Positions 5,148 through 44,364 are shown, numbered from the stretch's first letter. The stretch: 64,000 nt of DNA from Patescibacteria group bacterium (GCA_049319825.1 JBMORT010000006.1:80012-144011); one strand, 5' to 3'. Numbers and translations: made by a program. The notes: generated by a model from the letters alone, not told the origin.

Positions 5148-5150
5148 GAT

Positions 5151-5552
5151 ATGGCCAGTCTATTAAAAAAATTAAAAGGTTCAAAGAAAGAGAGCGGTCA
5201 GCGGGCTGAATCCAAGCCGGCTATGGTAGAAAAAAAAGATGTTAAGAAAGCATTAAAGAAAAAGGACAGTACCGCCTATAAAATAGTTTTTAAACCATTG
5301 ATTACGGAAAAAGCTACGGATTTAGGATATGCGCATCAATATTCATTTATTGTTTCCAAATATGCCAGCAAAGCGCAGATTGCCGATACGGTAAGAAATA
5401 TCTATGGCGTGAGGCCGGTAAAAGTTAGAACGATTAATTTTTCCGGCAAAAACGTTCGCTATGGTCGTTTCGCGGGCAAACGGCGCGCTTGGAAAAAAGC
5501 GATCATTTCGCTGCGCCCGGAAGATAAAATCGAAGTTTACGAAGGAGTTTAA
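5151..5552 (+). CDS. rplW: 50S ribosomal protein L23 with an N-terminal Lys-rich extension
   Basis: L23 core (KPLITEKA...YSFIVSKYASKAQI); about 40-aa basic N-terminal extension. Confidence 0.87.
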   Translation: MASLLKKLKGSKKESGQRAESKPAMVEKKDVKKALKKKDSTAYKIVFKPLITEKATDLGYAHQYSFIVSKYASKAQIADTVRNIYGVRPVKVRTINFSGKNVRYGRFAGKRRAWKKAIISLRPEDKIEVYEGV

Positions 5553-5557
5553 TAACT

Positions 5558-20204: not shown

Positions 20205-20206
20205 AA

Positions 20207-23200
20207 TTATTGTTCAGACAAAGTCACGTATCCGCCATACACGCTATCGGCATTGCCGGTATTGACATAGATTGTCAAATAATTGGTGGTGCTGGAAGCG
20301 GTGTCGGTTATATTGATTTCAGTGCCGACAACTCCTGCCCCTAAATTCGTGGCGGTGGTGTTATTGGTGATGTCGTTGGCGTAAACGGTAACGGTGTTTG
20401 TTGTGTCCGAACCGTATACCATGGCCGCGGTCGCCTGAAATCCGGTGGGGATGGCAATGGTTGCCGCCATTTGCGTGGTACCGCTGCTGGCGGTGACCGA
20501 CGTGCCATCAGTGGCGATGGTGGCGTTATCGTCATTGTCATCGGAAATGAAATCCGCTGGTAATAATTTGAGCCGAGTGGTCGAGCCGAACCAGCCGTTT
20601 CGTACCCAGCTGAGATTACCATTGCCGTCAGTTTGCAAAAATTGTCCGGAATTGCCGTCATTCGCCGGCATGGTATATGTGGTATTTTGAGTCATGGCCG
20701 CCGGCGGCTGGAAAATGATTTCATAATCGGTCGGACCTTGCTCGGAATATATTCTTAATTGCCCGTCAGTGCCGTTGCGCCCTGTCCTGATGGCGCCGGT
20801 GGTATCTATTGCGTAGGCAGGAGCGTTGGTGCCGACGCCCAATCGCTTATTGGTATTATCCCAGAAAAAGTTGGTATTATCTTGTGTTATCAAGCCTGAC
20901 GTTCCCGTGAATACGACTGAGCCGGCAGTCAAATCAGAAATAGTTAATGTTTCTCCCGCATTCAGCAAGATATCGTCTCCGGCGGTTGCCGGTGATAAAT
21001 TGGTGCCGGTTCTGGACCAGTAGTTGGTGCCGGCCGAGCTAACACAATCAGTCCAGGCGCCGGATTGATAGCATCTGAATTTATTGGTATTGGTATTGTA
21101 ATAAATCGCACCGTTAGTGCCGGCCGGATCACCGGCATCGCTTTTTTTATCCAAAATCAAAAGATCGGGAGTGGTTGAACCGGCGCCGCCGGCGCCGATT
21201 TGAACATAAGCTGTAGTGCCGGTGCCGGCCGGTTGCAGCGTGATATTTCCGGTAGTGGTGGAAAAGCTGGAGGCGGCGCCGCCTTGCATGGCCAGCGCTG
21301 AAGCCGATGTTAAATTAAGGTTGCCCGATGAAGTTGACCAGGTTGAGGTGGCGCCGGCGGTGAGTGTCAGCGCGCCGGAAGAAGTAAATTGCGAGGCGGA
21401 TGTCGGGGTGAGATTGACCGCCCCTGATCCAGTGGCGTTGAAGTTTCCCGATGTCAGATTAAAAACTATCGGTATGCCCGCGGCGGTGGTGATTGACGCG
21501 CCGTTATCGTACGCGGTTTGCAAGGTGGCGGAAGCCCCGGTGGTATCGCAGTCTTTCCAGGCGCCGCTTTCATAGCAGCGGAATTTATTGGTGGTTGAGT
21601 TATAATAGGTGAGCCCGTTTGAACCGGCCGGATCAGCGCCAATTGAGCCAAGCAATAATTCGCCGGTTATCGTGGTCCTGTCAGTGCTGCCATTGCCCAA
21701 ATTTGAATTGCCTTGAACACCAAGATCGCCGGTTAGCGTTAATCCGGTAAATTGGGGGCTGTCCGCTGTGCCCAATCCGAGAGATGTTCTGGCGGTGTTG
21801 CCGGATTCTGCGACCCAAGTGGTGCCATTGCCGACTATAAAGTCGCTATCAGCGGATGATAATCCAGCAATGGCGGCCAAGGCGCCACTGAGAGAAAAAT
21901 TAATTGTGTCTGTGCCCGCGTTTCCGGTGACGTACATCCCTGTTCCCGCGGTTAAAGCTAAAGTGTCTGTCGACGCGTCCGCTACCGGGTTTGTTCCCAG
22001 CGGAGTGGAAATCGTTTCAAAAAGATTTTGAGCAGCGGCAGAAACAGTGGCCCACTGAGGGTCTGCCCCGGCGCCCTGAGTTTGCAGGACTTGGCCGCTG
22101 GTTCCCGGAGACAGAGTCACCCAATCAGATCCGTCAAAGTAAAGGACTTCGCCCTGAGCGGCGGTAATTGAGGCGATATCATCGAGGTAAGAATCCCAAG
22201 CCTGAACATTGGAGCCGATAGCTAATCCCAAGTTTGATCGAGCGGTGGTGGCGTCGGTGGCGCCAGTGCCGCCTTTGGCGATGCTCAGAGTGCCGCCCAA
22301 ATTGTCCAATGTTAAATTAGCTTCAGTGATATCAATATCGATTTCATTATTGATGGCGTCGTTCGAAACGTTGACTTTGCTTGATCCGGCATTGATATTC
22401 TTAAATTCCAAGTCAGCGCCGGTTTTTTGTAAAAATGGTCCGACCCCGCCAACACCTTGATTCGAGGCGGTATTAGTTTCTCCGCCGCCGCCTGCCGCCC
22501 ACTGCGGATTGGCGCCGGCGCCTTGCGTTTGCAAAAATTGTCCGGAGGTGCCGGCGGCGAGCCTGACCCAGTTGGTGCCGTTAAAGTAAAGGACATCGCC
22601 CTGAGCTTCGCCGGATATCGTTAAATCGGTTACGGTGGTTGAACTATAAGATCCGGAAACGTCCCCGCTGAAAGAAGTGGCAGTGGTCAAGTCATCAGTG
22701 CTGACCTTGTCCCAATTGGCAGTGCTTGTCTGCTGCCAGTTGGCGCCGTCGCCGATAATAATGTTGTTGTTTGTCGGAGTTAAACCGGCGATGTCATCGA
22801 GCTGGACATCCCAAGCCTGAACGCTAGTACCAATGTTCGCATCGAGAAGCAAAGTTCCGGTTGCAGCAGGAATAGTGACAGTAACATCGGCGCCGGGATC
22901 GGCAGCGGTTAACTGAACTTCATTGCCGTCAGCGGAAGTGCCTTCAAACCAGAGAGAATTGCCGTCGTTTCCCGCGGTAGCGGTAAATGCCGCTCCTGAA
23001 GCGACATCGCCAACATCTGTAACATCACCTGAGCCTGCGGCAGCCGCCCACTGCGGATTGGCGCCGGCGCCTTGCGTTTGCAAAAATTGTCCGGAGGTGC
23101 CGGCGGCGAGCCTGACCCAGTTGGTGCCGTTAAAGTAAAGGACATCGCCCTGAGCTTCGCCGGATATCGTTAAATCGGTTACGGTGGTTGAACTATAAGA

Positions 23201-23482
23201 TCCGGAAACGTCCCCGCTGAAAACGGTGCTGGTCGTTAAATCGTCAGCATTGTTTTTATCCCAGGCGGCGGCGTTTAGCCAGGTGGCATTGCCGAGGGCA
23301 TCGGATTGAAGAATAAAACCGGCTCCGGCCCCGTTTGAAAACAATAAATTACCCTGAACGCTGAGATTTCCGCCGGTGGTGATGTTATTGCCAATAGTGG
23401 TGGCTGCCAAAGTGGATGGGCAAATCACTAAATTTAATAAAAGGATTATTCCAAAGGCCTTTAATTTTTTTTTGATGTTCAT
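20207..23482 (-). CDS. Large secreted Gly/Thr/Ser-rich repetitive surface protein (1091 aa)
   Basis: Signal peptide. Three copies of the motif LYF(N/D)G(T/S)(N/D)WV.L..GTSGQ.LQTQGAGA.PQWA. Forms an operon with the 653-aa gene. Confidence 0.85.
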   Translation of the reverse strand: MNIKKKLKAFGIILLLNLVICPSTLAATTIGNNITTGGNLSVQGNLLFSNGAGAGFILQSDALGNATWLNAAAWDKNNADDLTTSTVFSGDVSGSYSSTTVTDLTISGEAQGDVLYFNGTNWVRLAAGTSGQFLQTQGAGANPQWAAAAGSGDVTDVGDVASGAAFTATAGNDGNSLWFEGTSADGNEVQLTAADPGADVTVTIPAATGTLLLDANIGTSVQAWDVQLDDIAGLTPTNNNIIIGDGANWQQTSTANWDKVSTDDLTTATSFSGDVSGSYSSTTVTDLTISGEAQGDVLYFNGTNWVRLAAGTSGQFLQTQGAGANPQWAAGGGGETNTASNQGVGGVGPFLQKTGADLEFKNINAGSSKVNVSNDAINNEIDIDITEANLTLDNLGGTLSIAKGGTGATDATTARSNLGLAIGSNVQAWDSYLDDIASITAAQGEVLYFDGSDWVTLSPGTSGQVLQTQGAGADPQWATVSAAAQNLFETISTPLGTNPVADASTDTLALTAGTGMYVTGNAGTDTINFSLSGALAAIAGLSSADSDFIVGNGTTWVAESGNTARTSLGLGTADSPQFTGLTLTGDLGVQGNSNLGNGSTDRTTITGELLLGSIGADPAGSNGLTYYNSTTNKFRCYESGAWKDCDTTGASATLQTAYDNGASITTAAGIPIVFNLTSGNFNATGSGAVNLTPTSASQFTSSGALTLTAGATSTWSTSSGNLNLTSASALAMQGGAASSFSTTTGNITLQPAGTGTTAYVQIGAGGAGSTTPDLLILDKKSDAGDPAGTNGAIYYNTNTNKFRCYQSGAWTDCVSSAGTNYWSRTGTNLSPATAGDDILLNAGETLTISDLTAGSVVFTGTSGLITQDNTNFFWDNTNKRLGVGTNAPAYAIDTTGAIRTGRNGTDGQLRIYSEQGPTDYEIIFQPPAAMTQNTTYTMPANDGNSGQFLQTDGNGNLSWVRNGWFGSTTRLKLLPADFISDDNDDNATIATDGTSVTASSGTTQMAATIAIPTGFQATAAMVYGSDTTNTVTVYANDITNNTTATNLGAGVVGTEINITDTASSTTNYLTIYVNTGNADSVYGGYVTLSEQ
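22494..22673. repeat. ~180-bp direct repeat, copy 1, inside the 1091-aa gene
   Basis: Identical to 23044-23222 at the nucleotide level (both spurious minus ORFs translate to MSFTLTAPTGSGSPPAPPDNFCKRKAPAPIRSGR). Confidence 0.85.
23044..23222. repeat. ~180-bp direct repeat, copy 2
   Basis: See copy 1. Confidence 0.85.
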
Positions 23483-30517: not shown

Positions 30518-32182
30518 ATGTATCAAAGCATTCTCAAAAAAATAATCCTAAAATTAATTGACACGGGTCCGGTTTTTAAAAACGTAAAGCCGGAAAATTT
30601 TACTTTTCCGCCAATGGTTGAACTGGGGGACCTGAGCTTGCCGGTTTTTGATTTGGCCGACGGCAATCCGGCTGAGTTTGCCGCGAGCCTGGCCGAAAAG
30701 CTCGGCTCAAATGAAGTTTGGGAAAAGGTTGAAGCTAAGGGGCCGTATCTGAATTTCTACTTTAAAGCAGAAGTTTGGGCGAAAGATTTCATTGAGGCAG
30801 CAGGTAAAAGGCAGCAGGCAGCTGGTCAGAAAGTGATGATTGAATATTCACAGCCCAATACGCATAAGGAATTTCATGTCGGGCATCTTAGAAACGCCTG
30901 TTTGGGCGCGGCCATTGTCAATTTGTATCGGTTCGCCGGCAATAAAGTGATTGCCGCCACCTATGTCAATGATGTCGGCCTGCATGTGGCCAAATGCCTG
31001 TGGGCGTATTTGAAATTTCATCAAGGCGAAGAGCCGGCCAGCGAGCAGACTAGGTTCCTCGGCAAAATTTATACTGAAGCGGTACAAAAAATGGAAAAGG
31101 ACGAGACTATTAAAAGCGAGGTTGATGAAATTTTAAAAAAGCTTGAGCGAAAAGACAAAGACATAATGAAATCATGGAAAAAAACTCAGAAGTGGAGCGT
31201 TGAAGATTTTAAGAGAATTTATAAACTGCTGGGAGTGAAATTCGACGAATGGTATTTTGAGAGCGATATTTTAGAAAACGGCAGAAAGATAGTCGGTGAC
31301 CTTTTGAAAAAAGGCATTGCCAAAAAAGACCAGGGCGCGGTTATTGTTGATTTGAAAAAATACAATCTTGACGTGCTGTTGATACTAAAGTCTGACGGCA
31401 CGACCTTGTACTCGACCAGTGACCTGGCCTTGGCCTACAAAAAAGCGAAAAAGAAAGTTGATGTCAGCATCTATGTTGTTGACAACCGGCAGACATTGTA
31501 TTTAAAACAAATATTCAAAACTTTAGCGCTGGCCGGATTTGAAGAAAAGATGGTTCATATCCCTTATGATTTTGTGAATTTGCCCGCAGGCGCGCTATCG
31601 TCTCGAAAGGGAAATATTGTTTCTTTTGACGAGCTTTTTAATAAGATGATGGAAAAAAGCATGGCCGAGACCCAGAAGAGACACAGCGATTGGCATGGCA
31701 AAAAGATAAAAGAAGTTGCTGAAAAGATTTCCTTAGCTGCCATAAAAATCGGAATGTTAAAGTATGGCAATAATAAAGTCATTACTTTTGACATGGATGA
31801 AGCGCTCAGCTTTGACGGCAAGACCGGCCCTTATCTTTTATATACATCCGCTCGAATCAATTCGATAAAGGAAAAATTGAAAACCGTCGGCGCTGCGGAT
31901 TACAGTTTGCTTGAGAAAACCGAGGAAAGAGAGCTGCTTAAATTACTGGCGAATAATGAAAATGAGATTGAAAGAGCATGCAGGGAAAATGATCCGTCGG
32001 TTCTGTGCAATTATTTATTTGATCTGGCCCAGGCTTTCAATGATTTTTACCAAAAGCATTCGATCATTCGCGCTGAGGATAAAAAACTGCGGGCAGCCAG
32101 ATTTAATCTGGCGCAGGCGGTGGGGAAAAAACTTCGTCAGGGATTGGGCCTGCTTAATGTGGAGTGGTTGGCGAAGATGTAG
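30518..32182 (+). CDS. argS: Arginyl-tRNA synthetase
   Basis: HVGHLRNA class-I motif and a DALR-like C-terminus; 554 aa. Confidence 0.9.
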   Translation: MYQSILKKIILKLIDTGPVFKNVKPENFTFPPMVELGDLSLPVFDLADGNPAEFAASLAEKLGSNEVWEKVEAKGPYLNFYFKAEVWAKDFIEAAGKRQQAAGQKVMIEYSQPNTHKEFHVGHLRNACLGAAIVNLYRFAGNKVIAATYVNDVGLHVAKCLWAYLKFHQGEEPASEQTRFLGKIYTEAVQKMEKDETIKSEVDEILKKLERKDKDIMKSWKKTQKWSVEDFKRIYKLLGVKFDEWYFESDILENGRKIVGDLLKKGIAKKDQGAVIVDLKKYNLDVLLILKSDGTTLYSTSDLALAYKKAKKKVDVSIYVVDNRQTLYLKQIFKTLALAGFEEKMVHIPYDFVNLPAGALSSRKGNIVSFDELFNKMMEKSMAETQKRHSDWHGKKIKEVAEKISLAAIKIGMLKYGNNKVITFDMDEALSFDGKTGPYLLYTSARINSIKEKLKTVGAADYSLLEKTEERELLKLLANNENEIERACRENDPSVLCNYLFDLAQAFNDFYQKHSIIRAEDKKLRAARFNLAQAVGKKLRQGLGLLNVEWLAKM

Positions 32183-32281
32183 AGTTTTTCACTGCTGTTT
32201 AGAGTGGATTCCCGCTTGCGCGGGAATGACAGCCGGGGCAGTGGAATAAAGCTCAGATTAAAAACTTGTTAATAAAAAAAT

Positions 32282-32303
32282 AGCCAGCCGGCTGTTTTTT
32301 TTG
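32282..32303. terminator. Intrinsic terminator after argS
   Basis: CAGCCGGCTG palindrome followed by T8, preceded by an A-run (bidirectional). Confidence 0.6.
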
Positions 32304-32434
32304 TATAATAAAAAAAGAAACTGGAAATTGTCCGCCAGAGGCGGATACGCCTTCGGCGGAGAAACCGGAAATTTGAAATTAGGGATTGGAATGTTTCCAA
32401 ATCGTTACGAATTGATATTAATCTCACTAAGTTT

Positions 32435-33118
32435 ATGAAGCTTAGAATTTTTGTATATTTTATTGTATTATTTTTACTGCCGGGCTCGGCGCTGGCCGTG
32501 GGCATGAGCGGCACGAATTACGAAATACCTTTCGACTCAATCAATATCGGCGGCAGTGATTTTTCCGGCTCTGCCAATTATTTGATGTTTGATACCATGG
32601 GCGAAGCCGGGACCGATTTTTCCAGCTCCGCAAATTATCAAATGAACGTGGCCGGTTATCGCCAAAAGGATTTGGTGACGACTTTAAGTTTATCGCTGAA
32701 CACCAGCAATTTGAATTTGGGTCAAATTAAGCCGTCTGAAAACGCCAGCGGATCGATCACCGCCACGGTGACCACCAATGCGGCCAACGGCTATGACCTT
32801 TATATTAAAAAAAATCAATTACTGACTTCGGCCGGGCACAGCATATCGGATTTCAGCGGCACGATCGCCGCGCCGATCGCTTGGAGCGGCGTTGGTTTCG
32901 GCTTCACGCTGATCAGCGGCACCGGTCTGGACATCAAATGGGGCAGCGGCGCCAATTTCGCCGCCGTTCCCGGAGCTTCAACTTTGACTCACACCAAACC
33001 GGCCCTGTCTTTGATCCCCGATGACACGCAATTCGGATTTAAGGTCGAACTTGATTCAAATCAATCGTCGGGCATATATTCAAACACCATTACTTTTACC
33101 GCCTTGCCGAAATTATGA
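32435..33118 (+). CDS. Secreted protein (227 aa) with internal repeats; possibly WxL-like
   Basis: Signal peptide MKLRIFVYFIVLFLLPGSALA. The C-terminus ...TITFTALPKL resembles a WxL tail. Its stop overlaps the next ATG (ATGA). Confidence 0.75.
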   Translation: MKLRIFVYFIVLFLLPGSALAVGMSGTNYEIPFDSINIGGSDFSGSANYLMFDTMGEAGTDFSSSANYQMNVAGYRQKDLVTTLSLSLNTSNLNLGQIKPSENASGSITATVTTNAANGYDLYIKKNQLLTSAGHSISDFSGTIAAPIAWSGVGFGFTLISGTGLDIKWGSGANFAAVPGASTLTHTKPALSLIPDDTQFGFKVELDSNQSSGIYSNTITFTALPKL

Positions 33119-33978
33119 TGCGCGTTTCCAAAAAGATATTATTAATCAGCTTGATGCTATCGATATTAACGCCGCTATCGAGTATCGCCCAAACGCAAAT
33201 TTCATTGGCAGTGACGCCGCTCAAGCACGTTTTCAGCATCGAGCCCGGGCAAAGTCAGCAGGGAGAAATTTTTTTAAAGAATAATTCGACAGTCGCGTTA
33301 AAGGTCGTTCCCCGAGTGGTGGCTTTTCGGACGATCGACGATCAAGGCACTTTGGAGATCATCGAAGGCGATTTCACCGACTATGTTTCCTTGCCGGTGA
33401 GCGTGTTTGAGCTGATCCCCGGGGAAAGAAGACAAATAAATTTTAACGTTTTCGCTCCCGCCAATGAGAGTGGCGGACGTTATTTCGCCATATTATTCGC
33501 CGCCGATACTGTCGATCAGACAGCGGGGGCGTCTTTTTCGGGCGAGGTCGGCAGTTTGGTTTTTATGGAGATCCTTGGAGATATTTGGCATCAGACCGAA
33601 ATAAAGGATGTTCGATCAAAAAAAATTTACTGGAGTCAGCCGGAATTGTCGATCACTTTGGAAAATAAAGGCAATACGCACAGCGCGCCGTTTGGAGAAA
33701 TAAAATTTTTTAATCTATTCGGTCAGAAAAAAGAAACCGTCACCGCATTTTGGCCCCAGATATTGCCGGGCGGCGAACGGCAGCTGCATATTTCTCCGCG
33801 TGGAAATTTTTTCGGGTACTATAAAGCCCAAATCGGGCTAGTTGATAGCGAATGGAATTATTTAACCGAGGAAATCGATTTTTGGGTCTTGCCGAAAATT
33901 TATATTTTTGAAATTTTAATATTGCTGGCGGCGGCAATTTTTACAGCCGCGTTCATCAAGAAAAAATCCCATGCTTAA
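33115..33978 (+). CDS. DUF916/DUF3324-like cell-surface protein (signal peptide plus C-terminal TM and basic tail)
   Basis: FSIEPGQSQQGEIFLKNNSTVALKV matches the DUF916 N-terminal pattern. C-terminal hydrophobic helix followed by KKKSHA. Confidence 0.7.
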   Translation: MMRVSKKILLISLMLSILTPLSSIAQTQISLAVTPLKHVFSIEPGQSQQGEIFLKNNSTVALKVVPRVVAFRTIDDQGTLEIIEGDFTDYVSLPVSVFELIPGERRQINFNVFAPANESGGRYFAILFAADTVDQTAGASFSGEVGSLVFMEILGDIWHQTEIKDVRSKKIYWSQPELSITLENKGNTHSAPFGEIKFFNLFGQKKETVTAFWPQILPGGERQLHISPRGNFFGYYKAQIGLVDSEWNYLTEEIDFWVLPKIYIFEILILLAAAIFTAAFIKKKSHA

Positions 33979-36697
33979 AGGAGGAAAATTAATCTTTGGC
34001 TTGATTCTGTGCGCCGCGTCATTGCTTGGCGGTGCGGTTTTTGGTTTGGCGGCTTCTTCGGATTCGACCGTTCAGGTCGAGGTGCTGCCGACGGGCGGCA
34101 ATATCACGCCGCCGCCGGATCAAGACCGAACCGCGCCGATTATTTCCAACATTCAAGTTATAAATATCACTGGCGATTCGGCCACCATCACTTGGGACAC
34201 GAGCGAGCCGGCGTCGTCGCTTATTTATTTCGGTGAAACCGCGGCCTACGGCCAATCCGTTGTTGACGGCAATTTATTAACCAGCCATTCTTTAAATATT
34301 TTCGGTTTGAACCCGGCAACGCTTTATCATTTTAACATCGTGGCCACCGACGCGGCGGCCAATTCAGCACAGTCCGGAGATTATACGTTCACGACCGCCT
34401 CAGCCGCCGGGTTATACGCGCCCGGTCCGCCGATTTTGGATGCCTGGTCCGCTTCGGTGATAAATTTGACAATCGATACCAACGGTAATGCCGGCGACGT
34501 GCTTTACGCGATCAACGAAACGACCACCGGCCGCTATCTGTCGCCGAGCGGCGCTCTGGTCGTGTCTCCGACTTGGCAAACATTCACCAGCTGGGGCAGC
34601 GCGTTTGGCAAAAACGTCATTGGTTTATCGGAAAACACCAGATATACTTTTCGCGTTAGAGCCAAAAACGATGCCGGCGAATCAGCTTGGTCGGAATCAT
34701 CATCGGCCTACACTTTAATCAATAAACCGACCAGTTTGATGTTGATCGATGCCGGTTTATATAATTTAATAATCCGCGCGCAGGGCACATTGCCCAATAT
34801 TGGGGCCGGGTCAACGGCTTTGCGGTTTGAAAATGTTTCGACCGGGCAGGTTTCCGGCTGGATCCCCAATTTAAGCTGGAATAACCTCGGTCTTAATCCC
34901 GGTAGTCCTTATTCTTTCCGGGTGAAAGCCAGAAACGGCGATGGGCGAGAGACCGATTATACCGAATTGTTCGTGTTCTCGACTCATTCCCAGCTGCCGC
35001 AGTGTAGCGACGGCCGCGACAATGATAACGATAATTTTATCGATTATCCGGCCGACTCGGGTTGTGACAGCCCCAATGACAACAATGAAGAAAATTTGGT
35101 TGAAATTCCCCGCCAATGCTCGGATGGTATTGATAATGACAGTGATGGATTTACGGATTATCCTACAGATCAGGGTTGTGTTAGCCCGGAGGATGATAAT
35201 GAGCAAGATGAAGAAATAATCGAACCCTTGCCCCAGTGCGCTGATGGCATTGATAATGATAACGACGGCTTTGTCGATTATCCGGCCGACCTGGGCTGCG
35301 TCAGCGCGACAGACGACAGCGAGCTTGAGCCGCCGGTGGTTTTACCGGCCTGCGCCGACGGCATTGATAATGACGGCGACGGTTTAATCGATTATCCGGC
35401 TGACCCGGGTTGCGCTTCCCAGCTTGACAATGACGAAGTTGACGTGATTTATGAAGAAGCGATCACGCCGTCCGTTTCCGAGCGCGTCTCGGAAAATATT
35501 GGGCAAGCGCTCGAGGTCATTAAGCGCAACGCGGCCGTGGCTTTCATGCTCGATAATTTTTTTAACGATCCGGCAGTGGAAGCCGTGACGGAAAAAGTCG
35601 GGTTTCCGGCGATCGCCGCCGTAACCGCCCTAAACATCATCTCTATTTTTTCATTGGCGGGAATATTGCCATACCTGCTGTTCGTTTTCAGTGAACCGAT
35701 TTTGATTTTATTCAAGAAAAAACGAAAGAAATTCGGGGTGGTTTATGATTCAATTACCAAAAAACCTGTTGATTTAGCGATTTTAAGACTTTATGAACAA
35801 AACACCAATAAACTGATTCAAACTCGAGTATCGGATAAAGACGGGCGATTCGCTTTCATCGTTGATCCGGGAACATATTATATCAAAGCGTTTAAAAAGG
35901 AATATCTTTTCCCGACAGTGGTTTTGCAAAATCAAAAAGAGGATGTTTTTTACATTGATTTGTATCACGGAGAAAATATCAGCGTCACAGAAAAAGTGAC
36001 GATTACTCCAAATATTCCGCTTGATCCGGAAAAAGCGACTGAGCCGGCGAAAAAAGTTTTGGTGGTTCACGCGCTACGTAAATTTCAGAAAGTCCTGGCG
36101 CTGCTTGGGCCGCTGGCCACGCTGGTTATTTTAATGATAAAGCCGAGCTGGATTTGGGTGTTGCTTTTGGCGTTGCACATTTTACTGTATATCATATTTC
36201 GGCGGCTGGCCATGCCCGGCAAACCAAAAAGTTGGGGCATTGTCGCGGATAATATCGATAAAAAGCCGTTGAACCGCGCCGTTGTGCGATTGTACGACAG
36301 TAAGTATAATAAATTGTTGGAAACCCAAGTGACTGATAATCAAGGCAGATACGGTTTTATCGCAGGAAAAAACATTTATTACATCACCGCGGAGCGCCGC
36401 GGCTATCAGCCGGAAAAAACCAATAACATCGAACAAAATAAGATTGAGGGAGAGGCGGTTACCAGAAATTTATTTATGCAGCCGGCGGGAAAAACGGTCA
36501 CGACGCAAACCGCGACCGCGCCGGCCGCGCCGGTGTCTCCGTCGCCGGCAATTCAGTCGCGCCCCGCGGTTAGAAATTTACCGCATCAGTGGCGCGGTGA
36601 GGAATCAGCACAGGAAATTAAAGAAGAAACAGCCGGTGAAGATTTTGAATTCAAGGAAAGGGCCAAGGATATAAATATTCCTTGGAGCCAGCAATGA
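33971..36697 (+). CDS. Large membrane-anchored surface protein (908 aa): signal peptide, FN3-like domains, 4x Cys-bracketed Asp-rich repeats, 2x carboxypeptidase-regulatory-like domains separated by TM segments
   Basis: Repeats C.DG.DND.D.F.DYP.D.GC occur four times. VYDSITKKPVDLAILRLYEQ and VADNIDKKPLNRAVVRLYDS are paired beta-sandwich units. Confidence 0.85.
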   Translation: MLKGGKLIFGLILCAASLLGGAVFGLAASSDSTVQVEVLPTGGNITPPPDQDRTAPIISNIQVINITGDSATITWDTSEPASSLIYFGETAAYGQSVVDGNLLTSHSLNIFGLNPATLYHFNIVATDAAANSAQSGDYTFTTASAAGLYAPGPPILDAWSASVINLTIDTNGNAGDVLYAINETTTGRYLSPSGALVVSPTWQTFTSWGSAFGKNVIGLSENTRYTFRVRAKNDAGESAWSESSSAYTLINKPTSLMLIDAGLYNLIIRAQGTLPNIGAGSTALRFENVSTGQVSGWIPNLSWNNLGLNPGSPYSFRVKARNGDGRETDYTELFVFSTHSQLPQCSDGRDNDNDNFIDYPADSGCDSPNDNNEENLVEIPRQCSDGIDNDSDGFTDYPTDQGCVSPEDDNEQDEEIIEPLPQCADGIDNDNDGFVDYPADLGCVSATDDSELEPPVVLPACADGIDNDGDGLIDYPADPGCASQLDNDEVDVIYEEAITPSVSERVSENIGQALEVIKRNAAVAFMLDNFFNDPAVEAVTEKVGFPAIAAVTALNIISIFSLAGILPYLLFVFSEPILILFKKKRKKFGVVYDSITKKPVDLAILRLYEQNTNKLIQTRVSDKDGRFAFIVDPGTYYIKAFKKEYLFPTVVLQNQKEDVFYIDLYHGENISVTEKVTITPNIPLDPEKATEPAKKVLVVHALRKFQKVLALLGPLATLVILMIKPSWIWVLLLALHILLYIIFRRLAMPGKPKSWGIVADNIDKKPLNRAVVRLYDSKYNKLLETQVTDNQGRYGFIAGKNIYYITAERRGYQPEKTNNIEQNKIEGEAVTRNLFMQPAGKTVTTQTATAPAAPVSPSPAIQSRPAVRNLPHQWRGEESAQEIKEETAGEDFEFKERAKDINIPWSQQ

Positions 36698-36809
36698 GCG
36701 GATTGGTAAATCAGGAGGCGAGTATGGACAGACTGCTGCCGCCTCGTTTCCATTTTCCAGTTTTCAATTCCTCGTTTGTGAATAACTTTTTAATTTAATC
36801 ATATAATTT

Positions 36810-39800
36810 GTGGTAAAATATAAATCAGTAAATAATTTATCGTTTGTGAACGCTGGTAAAAAGAAAAGCTGGGTATTTTCAATTTTATTATTAGTGGCGC
36901 TGATTGCGGTTTCCGCCAATGTTTTTGTTTTTGAATCTAAGGCGGCAGTTACCAAGTATATCAACTATCAGGGGAAATTGACGGACAATTTGGGAAATCC
37001 GGTAGTCGACGGACCTTATACCATTCGTTTTCGAATATATAATCACGCGACCAACGACGCTGCCAATCCCTGCAATCCGGGAGTAAACTCATGCTTGTGG
37101 GAGGAAACTAAGGTGGTGACCACCACGAGCGGTTTGTTCACCAGCTATCTTGGCGATTCGACTGGGTTTGTCGATACCAATTTGTTAAATTATAACGGCG
37201 CTTCATATTACCTCGGGGTATTGGTAACCGGCGATACGGAAATGACTCCCAGAAAAAGAATATCGGGCGCTTTGTACGCTTTGAACTCCGATCGTTTGGG
37301 CGGCAAGCAGGAATCGGCATTTGCCGATTTAGGCGAAGCGGAGTCAATCAGCGGACACTGGACTTTTGCCAACGCATCCACTGACATTCAAAATACTTTA
37401 TATACCGATCAAGTTTTTGTGGACGTGGGCGGCACCAATGTTGATTTGGAGTCAACGGCCACGCCCACGACATCCGGCGCTTTTGCGATTGGCGTCAATG
37501 ATGAATTCACCCATTCAAATAGCCTAAACGTTCAAGATGTGCTGGATGATTTGGACGCGGCCATTCCGGCCGGCGGAGTGGCGCCCGCAAACGCGACATA
37601 TTTGGTGAATAGCGCGGATCCGACTTTAACCAATGAAGTGGTGGTTTCGGCTTTAACGGCGAATTTGGCCATTCAGGGCGATGATGCCGCGTCCAGAACC
37701 ATCACCTTGGGTCAGACCGGTGCTTTTAATGACTTGGTTGTCATTGATGCCGGCAATTGGTCGGTGGACGCGGCGGGCAATTCGTCATTTTCCGGCAATT
37801 TGACCACGACAGCGGGTGATTTGATAGTCGGCACGACCGGTTTAAGCGAGACTACCGCGCCAAATGACAGCGGAGCTTATTTGGTGGGAGCATTCGATGA
37901 ATTTACTTATTCCGCTTCGACTAACGTTCAGGCGGTGCTTAATGACTTGGACGCGGCGCTTGGCGCGATCGATTTGTTTACCGACGGCGGCGCCACGACT
38001 TATCGGACCGACACGGCAGACAATTTCGCGATTGGCGCGGCGAGCTTAGCAGCGCCGTTTAGCGTCAATGTGGGTCAAAATACGGTCCGGCTGGGATCCG
38101 GTGCGGGTACAAATTCTCATTTAATCATGTATGATAACGCCGGCGCATCCGGAGACATGGCTTATGGATCTGACGCGTGGACTTACAGCGGCGGATCGAT
38201 AAATTATTTGTTCGGCGCCACTCAGCGATTAAATATTGACGCGTCCAGCACCACTCATACCGATACTCAAGGAGTGATCAATATCGATCTGACTTCAGAT
38301 ACTTCATTTGTATCCGCGATTGACGTTAAGACCAAGTCAAGCGCGGGTTTGTCGGCCGGCGCCTATCCGTTCGGATTTAAATCTCACTTGGTGCCCAACA
38401 GCGGCGACAGCGGATCGGCGGCCAGAATCGGATTTTATTCCGACGTGGCCAGCGACGAAGCTTTGGTGGCCGGAGATTTTAAGTCTCAATTGATCGGCTA
38501 CATGTTCTTGGCGGATCCGGCGTTCAGCAATCAAATTTTGGGCACTTCACCGGTGATCGGCTATTTATCCCAGATCAATTCAGCGTCCACGGGGCTGGCG
38601 ACCGGCTTTAGCGCGCAAATGTCGAAATCAAACGTGGGCAATGTTTTTGGAATCGATAATTCGGTCAATACTTCGGCTCTCGGCAGCGGGACCGGCATAA
38701 ACAATAATATCTATCATACCGGCACCGGCAATGCTTTTGGCATCAATTCTTCCGTTCAAAGCGCATCGACGGTCGGTTCCCTGTACGGTGAAGATTATTC
38801 GGTAACGGCTAATGCGGGATTTGGCGGTACAATTTTTGGCTCCAGCACCACAATGGTCAATAATTCAGCGGCCGCGGCCGGCGACCTGACCGGGTCATAT
38901 ATCAGCATCACCAATTCCGGCGGCAGTTCAATCAATGATATTTACGGCGCTCATATTGTCATTGACGATTCAGGCACCTCGGCATTGTCTTACGGAGTCA
39001 GTATTGGCAATGTCGGAGCCAATTATTTGGATTATTTGATGTATTTGGGGGGAAATGCTCATATTGGCGTCGAATTGATATCCAATATCGGCATTGGCAT
39101 TGATTTGGACAATGCCACGATCGCCACTGCCGATGTCCGGTTAAGTCAGGGCACGCAATTGATTGATCTGGGCGCGAGCACGCTGTCTTTTAACTCCCGC
39201 TTGGTTCCAGCCACTCCTAACACCTATGATATCGGCGCCAGTCCGGATAAATGGCGAAACGGATATTTTTCCGGCACGGTTTACGCGGGCAGCACCTTGC
39301 AGCTCTCGGATAGCGGCATTACCGACACCAACAGCAATTTGATTTTAACGGCGTCCGGATCCAATTACGTGGATATTCAAGACACATTATATGTTGACGG
39401 CTTGCAATCCGACGGTGATGCGCTGATTAACGGTGATTTGACAGGCACCGGCGACCTCGGGACAGCGGTTTCACCATGGCCCGCAGCCTACGTGACGACG
39501 CTCAACAGCGCTAATGGCATCAATTCCACCGGTGACACGACTTTTGTGCTGGGAGCGACCGATAAAGTTTTAATCGATGCCAGCTCTGATTTGCATGCCG
39601 CCGCTGGTTCCGGAGCGCTGCAGATAAATTACCGAAGTAATACTTCCAGCGGCGACGCCTTGCTAGTTAACGTGGACACGGCCGGAACTTCGGGACAGCT
39701 GGTTCATGGCGTCAGCACTAATATTAATACTCGAACAGGCGATAATACTCAGGTCAGGGGATATGAACTTCAGTTTACCGATAATGCGGCCACTTCCGAT

Positions 39801-41987
39801 TTGATCGGTATGATACTTTTGGGAAATAAAACCAATAGCGGCCCGTTTTATGGAGTACAATCGAACGTCACACATTCCGGATCTGGAGATTTAGCCGGAT
39901 CGAATCAAACTTTAACTCATTCCGGCACCGGAGATATTTATGGAGAGGATTTTTCGATCAATCAATCGGGTACCGGGTTACTTTACGGATCGCTCAGAGA
40001 TTTGAATTCAGGCGCGTCATCAGTCAATGATTCATTTGATCAATACGTGACGATGACTCATTCCGGTTCCTTTGCCGATTTTACCGGTTACTATTTGGAT
40101 ATGACTCACGATACCACCGCCGCCGGCACTGGCACCGTCAGCGGTTTGGATATTACCATTAGAAATCAAGCTACGGTGCAGGATGCTTTTGGAATAAATT
40201 TGACCATGAATAACTCCAGCAATCCGACCGGCGATGAAATCGGCATGAAAATAACGGCCTCTTCGGCCATAGACAGCTTTATCGCTTTGAGCAATGCCGC
40301 CCAGTTTGGCATTGATATGGATAATGCCAGTTTTTCCAGCTATGATATTCGCTTATCCGACGGAGAATATATAAAAAATGACGCCAACGACACGATTGAA
40401 CTTGGCGGCCGGGTAAATATCCCTGCTTACACCGCCAATCCATTGTATGAATTGAAAATAAATCATACCAACAGTTCAAACGGTGTCGGCGGCATTCAAG
40501 TTGATTTAACCAATACCACCGGCGTTACTTACGGCATTTATTCTGAAAGTGATTCCGCCGATACAGGATCCGCAGCCGGATTATTTAACGCCACCAGTTC
40601 GGGCCGAGGCTTAATGGCCACCAGTTCCAGCGGCTGGGCCGCGTATTTCAGCGGTGGCGAGGGCGTGTATGTGAGCAAGCTTAGCGTCGGCGATACGGCT
40701 TCGCCGGATTATAACACTATCGGCACGGGCGCCGCTTCGCACACCGCGGCCGGTGAAATTGAGGATACCTCAGATTTGTTCATCGCCGACGACCTTGAGG
40801 TCAACGGTTACGCTTGGCTTGATGGCGGTTATACTGATGTCGCTGAATACATTATTGTCACTGAAAACGGGGTTGATCGCCATGTGCAGCACGTGCAGGA
40901 CGGATCAATTCGGAAAACCGATTTGGCTGGCGCCATCATTATTGCTGATTCCACTCATCCGGATAAAGCGACATTGTCATCAACTCCTTACGATAAAAGA
41001 ATAATCGGCATTATCGCCACCAATCCGAGCTTGATTATCAGCGGCGGCATTGATGACGATTATGGATACCCGTTGGTTTTAGCCGGCAGAATTCATACCA
41101 ATGTTTGCGGAGAAAACGGTGACATCGAAATCGGTGATTTTATCACCACTTCGTCAAAGCCCGGATTCGGCATGAAGGCCACGGAGCCGGGTATGGTTGT
41201 CGGCCAGGCGTTGGAATCGTTTAGCGGCGCGCCCGGCGATTGCGCACAGATTTTGGTATTTCAAAATATCGGCTGGTACCATAACGCGGCCGGCTTCGTT
41301 TCCAATAGTGTTACTTTTGGTTTGGAAAGCGTTAGCGAAGGTGATTTCTCGGCAACGCCGGTTTATGGCGGCGGCGATTTGCGCTTGTCCGGATCGTTAT
41401 ACGGTCCTAATAATAAATGGATGATTGATGAAGACGGCGCGTTTACGGTCAAGCAGGCTTTGCCCGGCGGCGCCATCATGGATTTGTATGCTCTAATGTC
41501 GCCTCAGCAGGAAATGATGTTCAGCGGCCAGGGCCGATTAATCGACGGCCGTTCGTCAGTTAATTTCGATCAAAACATCAGTCAGATAATTGAGGATGGT
41601 TATAAAGTGGTGGTTACCCCCACCAATGAGTGCGAAGGGTTGATGGTGCTGGAAAAGTCGGTCGACGGATTTTTGGTCAAAGAATTGAATCAGGGCACTT
41701 CCAGCGCGACTTTTGATTGGCTGGTGATGGCGTCACGATCGTCGTCCGTCGCGCCGTTAATCGAACCGGAAGAATTGGATCTGATCCAGCCCGACCATGA
41801 TGAACCGGCCAGCGACGATGCTGATCCGTCTGAATTATCAGAACCCGAAGCTGAACCGGATATGCCCGATGACCAGGCGATCGCCAGCGGCGATTGGCAA
41901 CCGCTTGTCGAACCAATCATTGAAGACGAAAATCCGGCCAGCGACGACGAGTCCATGGTGGCCAGCGACGATGCCAATCCGATATAG
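36810..41987 (+). CDS. Giant surface protein (1725 aa), Gly/Ser/Thr/Asn/Asp-rich with an N-terminal signal anchor and an acidic C-terminal tail
   Basis: Single long ORF with an N-terminal hydrophobic segment, low-complexity beta-rich composition, and an Asp/Glu/Pro-rich C-terminus. Confidence 0.85.
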   Translation: MVKYKSVNNLSFVNAGKKKSWVFSILLLVALIAVSANVFVFESKAAVTKYINYQGKLTDNLGNPVVDGPYTIRFRIYNHATNDAANPCNPGVNSCLWEETKVVTTTSGLFTSYLGDSTGFVDTNLLNYNGASYYLGVLVTGDTEMTPRKRISGALYALNSDRLGGKQESAFADLGEAESISGHWTFANASTDIQNTLYTDQVFVDVGGTNVDLESTATPTTSGAFAIGVNDEFTHSNSLNVQDVLDDLDAAIPAGGVAPANATYLVNSADPTLTNEVVVSALTANLAIQGDDAASRTITLGQTGAFNDLVVIDAGNWSVDAAGNSSFSGNLTTTAGDLIVGTTGLSETTAPNDSGAYLVGAFDEFTYSASTNVQAVLNDLDAALGAIDLFTDGGATTYRTDTADNFAIGAASLAAPFSVNVGQNTVRLGSGAGTNSHLIMYDNAGASGDMAYGSDAWTYSGGSINYLFGATQRLNIDASSTTHTDTQGVINIDLTSDTSFVSAIDVKTKSSAGLSAGAYPFGFKSHLVPNSGDSGSAARIGFYSDVASDEALVAGDFKSQLIGYMFLADPAFSNQILGTSPVIGYLSQINSASTGLATGFSAQMSKSNVGNVFGIDNSVNTSALGSGTGINNNIYHTGTGNAFGINSSVQSASTVGSLYGEDYSVTANAGFGGTIFGSSTTMVNNSAAAAGDLTGSYISITNSGGSSINDIYGAHIVIDDSGTSALSYGVSIGNVGANYLDYLMYLGGNAHIGVELISNIGIGIDLDNATIATADVRLSQGTQLIDLGASTLSFNSRLVPATPNTYDIGASPDKWRNGYFSGTVYAGSTLQLSDSGITDTNSNLILTASGSNYVDIQDTLYVDGLQSDGDALINGDLTGTGDLGTAVSPWPAAYVTTLNSANGINSTGDTTFVLGATDKVLIDASSDLHAAAGSGALQINYRSNTSSGDALLVNVDTAGTSGQLVHGVSTNINTRTGDNTQVRGYELQFTDNAATSDLIGMILLGNKTNSGPFYGVQSNVTHSGSGDLAGSNQTLTHSGTGDIYGEDFSINQSGTGLLYGSLRDLNSGASSVNDSFDQYVTMTHSGSFADFTGYYLDMTHDTTAAGTGTVSGLDITIRNQATVQDAFGINLTMNNSSNPTGDEIGMKITASSAIDSFIALSNAAQFGIDMDNASFSSYDIRLSDGEYIKNDANDTIELGGRVNIPAYTANPLYELKINHTNSSNGVGGIQVDLTNTTGVTYGIYSESDSADTGSAAGLFNATSSGRGLMATSSSGWAAYFSGGEGVYVSKLSVGDTASPDYNTIGTGAASHTAAGEIEDTSDLFIADDLEVNGYAWLDGGYTDVAEYIIVTENGVDRHVQHVQDGSIRKTDLAGAIIIADSTHPDKATLSSTPYDKRIIGIIATNPSLIISGGIDDDYGYPLVLAGRIHTNVCGENGDIEIGDFITTSSKPGFGMKATEPGMVVGQALESFSGAPGDCAQILVFQNIGWYHNAAGFVSNSVTFGLESVSEGDFSATPVYGGGDLRLSGSLYGPNNKWMIDEDGAFTVKQALPGGAIMDLYALMSPQQEMMFSGQGRLIDGRSSVNFDQNISQIIEDGYKVVVTPTNECEGLMVLEKSVDGFLVKELNQGTSSATFDWLVMASRSSSVAPLIEPEELDLIQPDHDEPASDDADPSELSEPEAEPDMPDDQAIASGDWQPLVEPIIEDENPASDDESMVASDDANPI

Positions 41988-42016
41988 CGTCCACTGATCA
42001 AATTTGATATAATAAA

Positions 42017-42047
42017 AGCAGTTTAAACGAATATAAACTGCTTTTTA
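42017..42047 (+). terminator. Intrinsic terminator after the giant gene
   Basis: AGCAGTTTAAAC-gaatat-AAACTGCT followed by TTTTT. Confidence 0.6.
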
Positions 42048-42051
42048 TTTT

Positions 42052-44364
42052 ATGAAATTCAAGGAAGTTTTAATCGATTTTTTCAGCAATTTCATTTTTA
42101 TTTTTATTTTGCTGACAGCGCTTTCCGTATTGTTTTTTTTACCCCCAAATCTGTTCATTATATTGAGCAAACAGCATTTAACATTGGTCTTATCCGCGCT
42201 GCTGTCATTGTTTTATATAGCGTTTGTATTATTGACCAAAAAGCATGATTTTGTCGGCAATAAAATGATTTACATCGCTCCGTTGGCTTTTTTTATGGGC
42301 GGGCTGATATCAGCGATTTTTTCGACATACCGCTACGCCAGCTTTTGGGGGGTGGAAACATGGGGTCTGAGTTTATGCAGTATCGGCGCTATTCTGGCCA
42401 TATTTTTCATTGTCATCAATTATTTGAATAGAAAAAGATACGACTGGCTGCTATTTTCTTTTCTCGCGGTGTTGGCCGTGGCGCAAGTGATATTCATCAT
42501 GACAGTGGCCGGGGCGCTGAATGTTAATTGGTTGCCGGCGAATTTGGCCGGTCAGAATCAAGGATTGGCTCAGCTATCATTGATCAGTACTTTGATTATT
42601 GGCGGGTTACTGAGCACGGATTTGAATAAAAAGAAGCTGGTAAAAATAACGGCGCTAGTCGGTCTAGCATTGTTAAACCTGATGTCATTGATGATAATCA
42701 ACTCATTGGCCGCATGGTTGGTATTGATGGTCGGCTTGATCGTTTTCGGCGGATTAAATTACTGGCAGCGCCGGGATAAATTCCCCAAAGCGGCCATCAC
42801 GGCGGTGGCGCTGATTGCGGCAACGGCCGCTGCTTGGCTGCTCAGCAGCGCATCGGCTATCCCCAAAGTGCCGCTGGAAATTTTGCCCAACGCCAAAACA
42901 TCTTATCATATCGCCTGGCAGGCCGTTAAAGAGCGGCCGCTGCCGGGCGTTGGCCTGAATAATTATCAGCGGGCTTATAATTTGTATCGGCCGGCGGCCA
43001 TCAATCAAACAGCATTTTGGTCGGAAACTTTTTATTATTCATATTCAAAATTCTCCGATATTTTGACTGGCGGCGGGCTGGTGGCCACAGCCGGGTTTTT
43101 GTTTTTTATCGGATATTTTTCATATTTTTCCCTGCGGCGGTCGCTCAAGCGCCGGCCGGACATTTATGTGTTGGGCTTGACAACCGCCTGGCTGGCTTGG
43201 GTGGTCGGAGCTTTTCTTTTTATTCCCAATTTGGCGGTTGATCTGATGGCCATGATTGTTTTGGCGGGTATTGTCGTTTCTTCCAGCGCAGGAGCCCGTC
43301 CTAAAAGAATCAAGAATAATATTCGCGTCATATTAATTTTCAGTCTGATCGCGCTTTTTATCGCTTCAGCGACATTCCTTCTTTTCGCCGTAAAAAGATT
43401 TGTGGCGGCGCAGGCTTTTTTTCAGGGCATTAAATTTTACAATGAAGAGGCCAGGCAAGAACAGGTGGAAAAGTGGTTGGTTTTGGCGGCCGATTGGGAT
43501 AAAAATAATGATCTTTATCAGCGGCAACTAGCACACTTTTACGCGGCCAAATTGCAGAACCGGATATTGAAAATCGATCAAAACGATTTAAACTCCGAAG
43601 CCGGCTTATCGGAAATTACGGCCATCAGCCAGCAAGCCAATGAATTTGCCACCGCCGCTGTTTCCGTTAATAATGACAATTATTTAAATCATTTGGCTCT
43701 TTATAATTTTTATGAGGTTTCCGGCCGGCTGGCGGCGAATGCCGGGCAGTGGCAAGAAAAAAGTTTGCTTAACGCTTTGGCCACTTACCCGACCAATGTA
43801 TATATTCTTCACCAACTGGCCAAGACAGAATTGTCTCAGGCAGATTTGCTCGTTGGCTTAATCGCTCAAGGCGGGCAGGACGAAGCGGTCTTGGGTGATT
43901 TGAAACTGCAAGCCACGAAAAAGGTTGGTCTGGCCAAGGAATATTCCCAGCGGGCTATCGGTTTAAAGCCGGATTATTTGCCCGCATACTTTTCACTGGG
44001 TGTCGCTCAGTGGCTCGGTGGCGAATTTGAACCGGCTCGGGAGTTAATGTTGCTGCTTGATCAGCAGAACCCGAATGATATTGGGGTAAAATATTATTTG
44101 GCATTGATTATGGAAGCAAACAAAGATACGGCGGCGGCTGTAGAATATTTACAGCAAGCCATTGATTTGGCGCCGACATTTTCCGAAGGGCGGTTAATTT
44201 TAGCCAGATTATATCTGAAACAGAAACAAACCAAGCTCGCTAGACAAACGCTGGAAAAAATTTTAGAATATGATCCGCAAAATGAGCAAGTATTACAAAT
44301 TCTAAGTAATTTTTCAGAAAGTAATATTGCCACGCCATTATCTTTACCGAGCAATATTGATTAA
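42052..44364 (+). CDS. Polytopic membrane protein with an O-antigen ligase/polymerase-like domain and C-terminal TPR repeats
   Basis: More than 10 TM helices in the N-terminal ~450 aa; the C-terminal ~300 aa contain TPR-like helical repeats. Confidence 0.7.
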   Translation: MKFKEVLIDFFSNFIFIFILLTALSVLFFLPPNLFIILSKQHLTLVLSALLSLFYIAFVLLTKKHDFVGNKMIYIAPLAFFMGGLISAIFSTYRYASFWGVETWGLSLCSIGAILAIFFIVINYLNRKRYDWLLFSFLAVLAVAQVIFIMTVAGALNVNWLPANLAGQNQGLAQLSLISTLIIGGLLSTDLNKKKLVKITALVGLALLNLMSLMIINSLAAWLVLMVGLIVFGGLNYWQRRDKFPKAAITAVALIAATAAAWLLSSASAIPKVPLEILPNAKTSYHIAWQAVKERPLPGVGLNNYQRAYNLYRPAAINQTAFWSETFYYSYSKFSDILTGGGLVATAGFLFFIGYFSYFSLRRSLKRRPDIYVLGLTTAWLAWVVGAFLFIPNLAVDLMAMIVLAGIVVSSSAGARPKRIKNNIRVILIFSLIALFIASATFLLFAVKRFVAAQAFFQGIKFYNEEARQEQVEKWLVLAADWDKNNDLYQRQLAHFYAAKLQNRILKIDQNDLNSEAGLSEITAISQQANEFATAAVSVNNDNYLNHLALYNFYEVSGRLAANAGQWQEKSLLNALATYPTNVYILHQLAKTELSQADLLVGLIAQGGQDEAVLGDLKLQATKKVGLAKEYSQRAIGLKPDYLPAYFSLGVAQWLGGEFEPARELMLLLDQQNPNDIGVKYYLALIMEANKDTAAAVEYLQQAIDLAPTFSEGRLILARLYLKQKQTKLARQTLEKILEYDPQNEQVLQILSNFSESNIATPLSLPSNID

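Follow-up and report, generated by a model that had tools for sequence, protein, structure and literature searches.

Bacteria of the candidate phyla radiation (CPR) live attached to other cells, and the means of that attachment are largely unexplained. The subject here is a set of four co-directional genes (genes 1 to 4, encoding 227, 287, 908 and 1725 amino acids (aa)) on the + strand at positions 32435-41987 of a 64,000-nt stretch of DNA from a Patescibacteria group bacterium; this whole stretch is called the window, and coordinates are positions in it. The locus is probably a compact, usher-less surface-assembly module that works through a chaperone and donor strands, falls into one class with the CPR Pam pilus, and has an evolutionary tie to the WxL/WxLIP systems of Firmicutes through gene 2. 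A probability of about 0.6 is attached to this reading.

The Pam pili of Candidatus Mycosynbacter amalyticus (Saccharimonadia) were solved by Troman et al. (bioRxiv 10.64898/2026.03.03.709456). The two-domain major pilins PamA and PamB, each comprised of a nine-strand N-domain, a donated linker strand and a C-domain, polymerise via donor-strand exchange. The chaperones PamC and PamD resemble PapD/FimC and end in a transmembrane (TM) helix. PamR, which has FN3 character, a TM helix and an additional strand at its N-terminus, was modelled as both terminator and anchor of the pilus. A trans-envelope machine is not needed, a tail-fibre-like protein is conserved in the pam neighbourhood, and Pam homologues are found mainly in Saccharimonadia and Microgenomatia. 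Neither WxL nor DUF916 is mentioned anywhere in the preprint (all bioRxiv 10.64898/2026.03.03.709456). The second point of comparison is the WxL cluster of Firmicutes, in which the WxLIP protein consists of DUF916 (PGBD), DUF3324 (HBD) and a TM helix (Hassan et al. 2023, PMC10599100). A WxL cluster is defined by at least one WxLIP and at least two WxL proteins within four genes, and AlphaFold2 (AF2) places a strand of DUF916 into the WxL protein (PMC10599100).

The original prediction had described the four genes as one translationally coupled surface-protein unit, and the overlapping codons and conserved gene order agree with this. Open reading frames (ORFs) were found exactly at 32435-41987: the stop codon of gene 1 and the start codon of gene 2 share ATGA, and genes 2 and 3 overlap by 8 nt (ATGCTTAA). 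Relatives at 46-59% identity share the order argS-g1-g2-g3-g4-TPR protein without change. These same-order homologues, together with the recurrence of the module in distant CPR genomes, mean that genes 1 to 4 are not chance ORFs.

Gene 2 (33115-33978, + strand, 287 aa) is a candidate for a membrane-anchored chaperone of PapD-like and WxLIP-like type on the basis of family profiles, hhalign and AF2. The protein comprises a signal peptide, a pair of beta-sandwich domains, a C-terminal TM helix at aa 262-280 and the basic tail KKKSHA, so that the signal peptide and the C-terminal helix with basic tail noted earlier were both recovered. The window protein itself had no match in Pfam, NCBIfam or PHROGs. 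Its family did: PF06030 (formerly DUF916, at present named WxLIP_PGBD) was matched by 6 of the 13 close homologues and, in the wider family, by 82 of 95 representatives, with a best E value of 3.5e-10. When the profile of the close family was run against PDB sequences, only two matches were obtained, both to EfmWxLIP1 (E ~2e-3), and no chaperone-usher chaperone was found at E<=10.

The gene 2 family was also aligned by hhalign with seven DUF916/DUF3324 genes taken from annotated Enterococcus, Lactococcus and Lactobacillaceae plasmids. The whole proteins aligned with 98.6% probability (E 1.4e-15) over 248 columns. After removal of the signal peptide and TM helix the probability was 96.0% (E 4.2e-9) and the score 66.5, against 13.1±2.0 (maximum 18.5) for shuffled targets. 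Domain 1 alone gave 95.7% (E 9.7e-9); domain 2 alone was colinear with the DUF3324 region at a level that was not significant (3.5%, E 0.012). By profile comparison, then, gene 2 qualifies as a putative remote homologue of the Firmicute WxLIP (DUF916). The assignment of gene 2 to the DUF916/DUF3324 pattern thus stood for DUF916 at the level of the family (82 of 95 for PF06030; hhalign 96-98.6%) and found only a weak echo in DUF3324.

AF2 models gene 2 with confidence as a PapD-like fold of two domains followed by the C-terminal TM helix, and this model matches two-domain chaperones across 150-187 residues. The fold scores were 13.4 for CfaA, 12.8 for both EfmWxLIP1 and SafB, 12.7 for FimC, 11.8 for CsuC and 11.6 for PapD. 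These scores and the hhalign result with WxLIP therefore suggest that gene 2 is a membrane-tethered PapD-like protein with an N-domain of the DUF916 lineage. The family is large, with 16,857 clusters (50% identity) at E<=1e-3 and 2,096 at E<=1e-30. When a profile of 95 sequences was used against the PDB, the match to EfmWxLIP1 was lost and a LytR_C domain was found instead, because a LytR_C-bearing subfamily dominates that alignment. The LytR_C domain occurs in 56 of the 95 wider family members, most of which are 430-570 aa long as against 287 aa here. In the few long relatives inspected the extra C-terminal region lies after the TM helix, and long proteins seem to be in the majority.

Gene 1 (32435-33118, + strand, 227 aa) is the candidate client of this chaperone: a secreted pilin-like (PamT-like) subunit, judged by NCBIfam, AF2 and fold matches. 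A signal peptide (aa 1-22) is followed by an N-terminal extension (aa 23-78), which holds three repeats of S/T-x-N-Y type, and by a C-terminal Ig-like domain (aa 79-227). The protein ends in TITFTALPKL, and its earlier description as a secreted repeat protein with this C-terminus was borne out by the signal peptide and the three repeats. Pfam matched nothing of note in it, while NCBIfam searches matched it significantly to PamT (NF058579; E 1.4e-13, 50.8 bits, with model positions 9-144 of 241 aligned) and to Pam_pilin_C (NF058581; E 7e-6, 26.2 bits, with aa 89-223 on model positions 2-144 of 148). Its relatives score 17-37 bits against Pam_pilin_C. The gene 1 family had more than 570 matches among 8,000 candidates scored. 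By these profile matches gene 1 is a remote relative of PamT and not an equivalog.

In the AF2 model of gene 1 the Ig-like domain is predicted well (pLDDT, AF2's per-residue confidence, ~90 at aa 79-227), and aa 16-78 are disordered (pLDDT <50). The top Foldseek matches of the folded domain were a PapG pilin domain (E 7.8e-4) and the TasA fibre (E 9.7e-4), with further matches to FimA/F/G, CfaB, CsuE and bundling pili; CsuA/B and archaeal bundling pili are also among the best fold matches. The fold scores are modest, yet in the model comparison the enrichment for donor-strand pilins is clear. Structure prediction, which had been proposed as a check, returned a PapD-like two-domain protein for gene 2, and for gene 1 a model that resembles donor-strand pilins.

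Two features of the gene 1 family point in the same direction. The extension is the most conserved segment of the protein: in an alignment of 119 members, 20 of its 56 columns are at least 90% conserved, whereas the folded domain has 24 such columns in 149. The C-termini also coincide, with 109 of the 119 members ending in a shared column and the other 10 ending one column later. A conserved extension that AF2 predicts to be disordered and a common C-terminus are characteristic of subunits folding against a partner, and are typical of donor-strand subunits.

About as well as it matches chaperone-usher pilins, the model of gene 1 matches the TasA fibre, TLP, bundling pili and CanX. Fibres such as TasA, archaeal bundling pili, threads and cannulae likewise occur in cells without an outer membrane. 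They have no dedicated two-domain chaperone gene, whereas gene 2 is translationally coupled to gene 1. The locus also differs from chaperone-usher pili, in that there is no usher and no outer membrane and gene 2 is membrane-anchored rather than soluble; no Pfam match to an usher, PapD_N or PapD_C was obtained in the four operon genes and four flanking genes.

The operon is probably a stripped-down, divergent relative of the CPR Pam pilus. Like the Pam system it is CPR-specific, all of its components are predicted to be exported by Sec, and no usher or trans-envelope machine is encoded. Gene 2 resembles PamC and PamD in having two beta-sandwich domains and a C-terminal TM helix, with the PapD/FimC-like fold described above, and gene 1 resembles PamT in its small size and pilin-type C-domain. 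Gene 3, an FN3 membrane protein with an N-terminal strand, may be likened to PamR by architecture, and gene 4 is the giant tail-fibre-like neighbour. The original prediction had held an equivalent CPR locus to be undescribed, to its author's knowledge; that statement is superseded by the pam operon, which follows the same logic (bioRxiv 10.64898/2026.03.03.709456). There are also differences. The window has a single pilin-like gene, a single chaperone-like gene and no two-domain major pilin of PamA/B/E type; where a full N-domain would stand, gene 1 carries an extension of 56 residues. Gene 3 greatly exceeds PamR in size, since it bears three FN3 domains and four acidic disulfide repeats as well as additional TM segments and a pair of CarboxypepD_reg domains. 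The Pam entries 25PZ and 25QA were not among the PDB matches.

Several points weigh against assigning the locus to the Pam kind. The scores of gene 1 lie below the PamT equivalog cutoff (50.8 against 240 bits) and below the curated cutoff of Pam_pilin_C (26.2 against 55 bits), and gene 2 would be placed in the PamC/D family by architecture and gene context. PamT, a single-domain putative tip subunit, was itself only modelled (bioRxiv 10.64898/2026.03.03.709456). No major pilin of PamA/B type was found in the 64-kb window, where a search with the profile of the gene 1 family matched gene 1 and nothing else; a filament is therefore not assured, and the product may instead be a short fibre or tip complex. 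ATP synthase genes, which are reported neighbours of pam operons, were not seen near the locus among the ORFs scanned.

The main rival is a complex of WxL/Csc type, in which gene 2 would act as a WxLIP that holds gene 1 and its partners non-covalently on the cell wall for adhesion or substrate capture, with no polymerisation. The resemblance to the WxL/Csc clusters of Lactobacillales and Listeria (PMC10599100; PMC1534035) is considerable: gene 2 has the signal peptide, DUF916-like domain, second Ig domain and TM helix of a WxLIP, it is by its profile matches a likely true WxLIP/DUF916 homologue, and it adjoins a small secreted beta-sandwich protein and large surface proteins, as in csc clusters. 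Modules of Parcubacteria type, in which two small proteins of the gene 1 family surround one gene 2-like gene, also echo the arrangement of a single WxLIP with a pair of WxL proteins (PMC10599100).

The partner protein does not fit this explanation. The C-terminus of gene 1 had been called WxL-like; the Pfam WxL model matched neither gene 1 nor any of its 118 relatives. Alignment by hhalign of the gene 1 family with twelve WxL domains, taken from annotated plasmids of Enterococcus, Lactococcus and Lactobacillaceae, on whole and domain-trimmed alignments in local, greedy and global modes, gave probabilities of ~1%, within the range of cross-controls and column-shuffled controls. The Trp-x-Leu motif is absent at both expected positions of gene 1, where GYDL and TFTAL stand. 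As hhalign was at control level, the resemblance of GYDL to GWxL and of TITFTALP to TLTWxL..P is no evidence of homology. A representative WxL protein used as a sequence query found no related PDB chain. The identification of gene 1 as a WxL protein was accordingly set aside as unsupported, Pfam and the controlled hhalign comparisons all being negative. The locus thus lacks the two or more WxL proteins with dual Trp-x-Leu motif by which a WxL cluster is recognised, domain 2 of gene 2 is not recognisably DUF3324, and no LPXTG protein was found at the locus in the NCBIfam scan. Gene 1 instead matches the Pam pilin models and donor-strand pilin folds, and the host is a CPR bacterium and not a Firmicute. 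A complex of WxL/Csc type is therefore considered unlikely, although it may be the same mechanism viewed from the Firmicute side. The WxL analogy was still a useful lead, because the Pam preprint never mentions WxL or DUF916; in the searchable literature no paper was found that links DUF916 or WxL with CPR.

Conservation was examined by comparing synteny with 29 other loci (numbered with the prefix L) from records of metagenome-assembled genomes, the titles of which include Saccharibacteria, Paceibacterota, WWE3, Kerfeldbacteria and Patescibacteria, among others. Genes resembling genes 1 and 2 are neighbours in most of the 29 loci, and a gene 2-like gene is present in all except L026. In distant modules the order is a small gene 1 paralogue of 225-250 aa (absent in L007), a gene 2-like gene of 320-345 aa, a gene 1-like gene of 250-260 aa, an FN3 protein of 460-545 aa and a giant protein of 1,643-4,020 aa, the last two being homologous to genes 3 and 4. 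In the small upstream paralogues, a strand resembling the one near the start of the FN3 proteins comes immediately ahead of the Ig domain, an arrangement that is classic for pilins. Three larger loci (L010, L012 and L017) contain two gene 2-like genes and two-domain proteins of 355-380 aa with Pam_pilin_C matches, which amounts to the complete Pam arrangement. Conservation of the four-gene module extends across CPR lineages, and the synteny search suggested at the outset thus found the unit retained in close relatives and recurring in distant CPR genomes. The Pam pilus has so far been characterised in one cultured species of Saccharimonadia; further CPR lineages possess a reduced version of four genes, the conservation of which is wide.

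Another explanation is that the four products are co-expressed but mechanistically independent envelope proteins, which share generic Ig-like folds and have no chaperone-client relation. Ig-like and FN3 folds are indeed common among surface proteins, the fold matches of the gene 1 and gene 2 models are of low sequence identity (8-16%), and genes 3 and 4 each have their own membrane anchor. This explanation would have to account for the fact that gene 1-like genes adjoin gene 2-like ones in CPR lineages that are deeply divergent, start and stop codons overlapping, and for the match of gene 2 both to two-domain chaperones over 150-187 residues and, by sequence, to WxLIP. It would also have to account for a gene 1 extension that is conserved though modelled as disordered, and for family C-termini that nearly all coincide. 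It is regarded as improbable.

Gene 3 (33971-36697, + strand, 908 aa) is an FN3-bearing polytopic membrane protein and, from Pfam, NCBIfam and hydropathy, a candidate for a PamR-like anchor. The signal peptide is followed by an alternating-hydrophobic strand (aa 32-40), a Pro-rich linker and three FN3 domains; strand and linker together read STVQVEVLP-TGGNITPPP. Every FN3 protein compared has such a short alternating-hydrophobic strand, similar to a donor strand, directly after the signal peptide, and then a Pro/Thr-rich linker; the description of PamR is alike. Next in gene 3 come the acidic repeats, a TM segment at 548-580 and the first CarboxypepD_reg domain, then a TM hairpin at 705-743, the other CarboxypepD_reg domain and finally a low-complexity tail. 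Pfam matched three fn3 and two CarboxypepD_reg domains, and the acidic repeats are four double-disulfide repeats (NCBIfam NF033662) at aa 345-481, with Cys pairs at 345/365, 383/403, 423/443 and 461/481. The FN3 domains, the four Cys-bracketed Asp-rich repeats, the two CarbopepD_reg-like domains and the TM segments of the earlier description are thus all present. The C-terminal module is also found beside gene 2-like genes in a Kerfeldbacteria genome (L023).

Gene 4 (36810-41987, + strand, GTG start, 1725 aa) is, by composition and by its relatives, a candidate giant fibre or adhesin. It had been described as rich in Gly, Ser and Thr with an acidic tail, and it is: Gly+Ser+Thr make up 31% of the protein and Asp+Glu 27% of the last ~110 residues. 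An N-terminal membrane anchor lies at aa 22-40, and the conserved parts are an N-domain (INYQGKLT..., aa ~48-180) and a C-domain (aa 1385-1494). Both domains are common to the giant proteins of L001, L004, L006-L008, L012, L017 and L029. Gene 4 itself had no match in Pfam, NCBIfam, PHROGs or, by phmmer, PDB sequences; its giant relatives carry weak Peptidase_S74, weak Peptidase_G2, collagen, H-lectin or SH3 domains.

The FN3 domains of gene 3 match PHROG tail-protein families weakly, and this, with the weak Peptidase_S74/G2 signals of tail-fibre chaperones in the relatives of gene 4, would be expected if the locus were a remnant or domesticated phage tail-fibre module. It lies, however, between aminoacyl-tRNA synthetase genes and housekeeping genes, and its place on the chromosome is unchanged in relatives. 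Other phage genes are absent, gene 4 is without a PHROG match, and the FN3 matches are generic. A phage origin is very improbable, and was discarded on genomic context.

Under the chaperone/donor-strand reading, a mechanism in five steps can be proposed. All four proteins would be exported or inserted by Sec, as the signal peptides and anchors visible in their sequences indicate. Gene 2 would then be held in the cytoplasmic membrane by its C-terminal helix, and its DUF916/PapD-like N-domain would donate a beta-strand that completes and stabilises the incomplete Ig fold of gene 1. From there gene 1 would be passed to the donor strand of a partner. If this strand were the N-terminal extension of another copy of gene 1, a homopolymer fibre would result; if it were the alternating-hydrophobic N-terminal strand of gene 3, the result would be a capped stalk. 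Gene 3 would anchor the assembly and raise it off the cell on its FN3 domains and disulfide-stapled acidic repeats, and gene 4 would be a co-expressed giant fibre that gives adhesion to host cells. An usher would not be needed, because there is no outer membrane. The parts of this scheme that have support are the signals for secretion and anchoring, gene 2's chaperone fold and homology to WxLIP, gene 1's pilin-type fold, conserved extension and similarity to the Pam models, and a gene order that is both conserved and coupled.

What is new here is the WxLIP homology of the chaperone-like gene in a minimal Pam-like module, which links the Pam and WxLIP systems. A broader proposal, which is tentative and rather less probable than its negation, is that the CPR Pam-type pili and the Firmicute WxL/WxLIP systems both branched from a single ancient chaperone/donor-strand assembly system in bacteria that lack an outer membrane. 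A membrane-tethered DUF916/PapD-like chaperone would be the hallmark of that system, and the four-gene set of pilin-like subunit, chaperone, FN3 anchor with donor strand and giant fibre would be its minimal core, present across much of the CPR. If this common ancestry were true, WxL proteins would be donor-strand clients or polymers and not simple peptidoglycan binders, and the gene 2 family, with ~17,000 clusters at 50% identity, would be among the commonest surface-assembly devices of CPR bacteria. The WxLIP link offers tractable Gram-positive models (lactic acid bacteria, enterococci and Listeria) for study of the mechanism, and suggests a new view of WxL virulence and adhesion clusters.

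The gap between argS and gene 1 is 252 nt and contains a promoter-like site (TAGCCA-17-TATAAT, 32281-32309, + strand), which is a consensus match only, at 10 of 12 positions. A terminator-like hairpin with a 12-bp stem followed by a T-run (42014-42045, + strand, pattern match only) begins 27 nt past the stop codon of gene 4. The two pattern matches would bracket the four-gene unit. Matches to Pfam and NCBIfam identified a housekeeping flank of valS, tyrS and argS upstream, and a Wzy_C-like/TPR membrane protein, a bactofilin, pyruvate kinase and PPDK downstream. The GC content of the operon region (32000-42000) is 0.46-0.50, above the 0.42-0.45 of its flanks; this could stem either from products rich in Gly, Ala, Ser, Thr and Asp or from a foreign origin.

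The gene directly downstream of gene 4 (42052-44364, + strand) encodes a 770-aa polytopic membrane protein with C-terminal TPRs and a sub-threshold Wzy_C/O-antigen-ligase match (E 4.8e-5). It is kept after gene 4 in relatives at 46% identity and is not found in the distant modules. The Wzy_C domain is present in pilin O-glycosyltransferases of the PglL/PilO type. Because such enzymes have this domain, and because PamA bears a glycan (bioRxiv 10.64898/2026.03.03.709456), the 770-aa protein could glycosylate the Ser/Thr-rich products of gene 1 or gene 4.

Further observations concern the loci compared. Close relatives have a CNNM/CBS (CorB-like) gene between valS and tyrS, a short way upstream of the module (5158-6150 in L001; 4501-5493 in L002), that the window is without; a CorB-like gene is conserved close to pam operons (bioRxiv 10.64898/2026.03.03.709456). 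Proteins with an excisionase/HTH_17-like N-terminus (motif GYTSDYVGQLCREGK) are encoded immediately 5' of the module in Parcubacteria-type loci (L006, 7190-8212; L007, 7097-7936 and 8152-8904; L008, 7010-8050), and may be dedicated regulators of it. For L009-L011, L015-L019, L022, L024 and L029 the record titles read 'uncultured Gammaproteobacteria' or else 'uncultured Pseudomonadales bacterium'. A contig so titled, CAYPKD010000001.1, is syntenic with the window, and the titles look like placeholders or mislabels. In L010 a gene 2-like ORF of 447 aa (4726-6069) has a C-terminal stretch that resembles the N-terminal regions of IS481/IS630 transposases, which suggests an insertion or fusion artefact in that locus. 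Elsewhere in the window, two large ORFs of 653 and 1091 aa on the - strand (18243-23482) have a GC content of 0.49-0.52, compared with 0.42-0.44 in the flanking DNA; they match DUF3344 weakly and otherwise no family, and may be another surface-protein pair.

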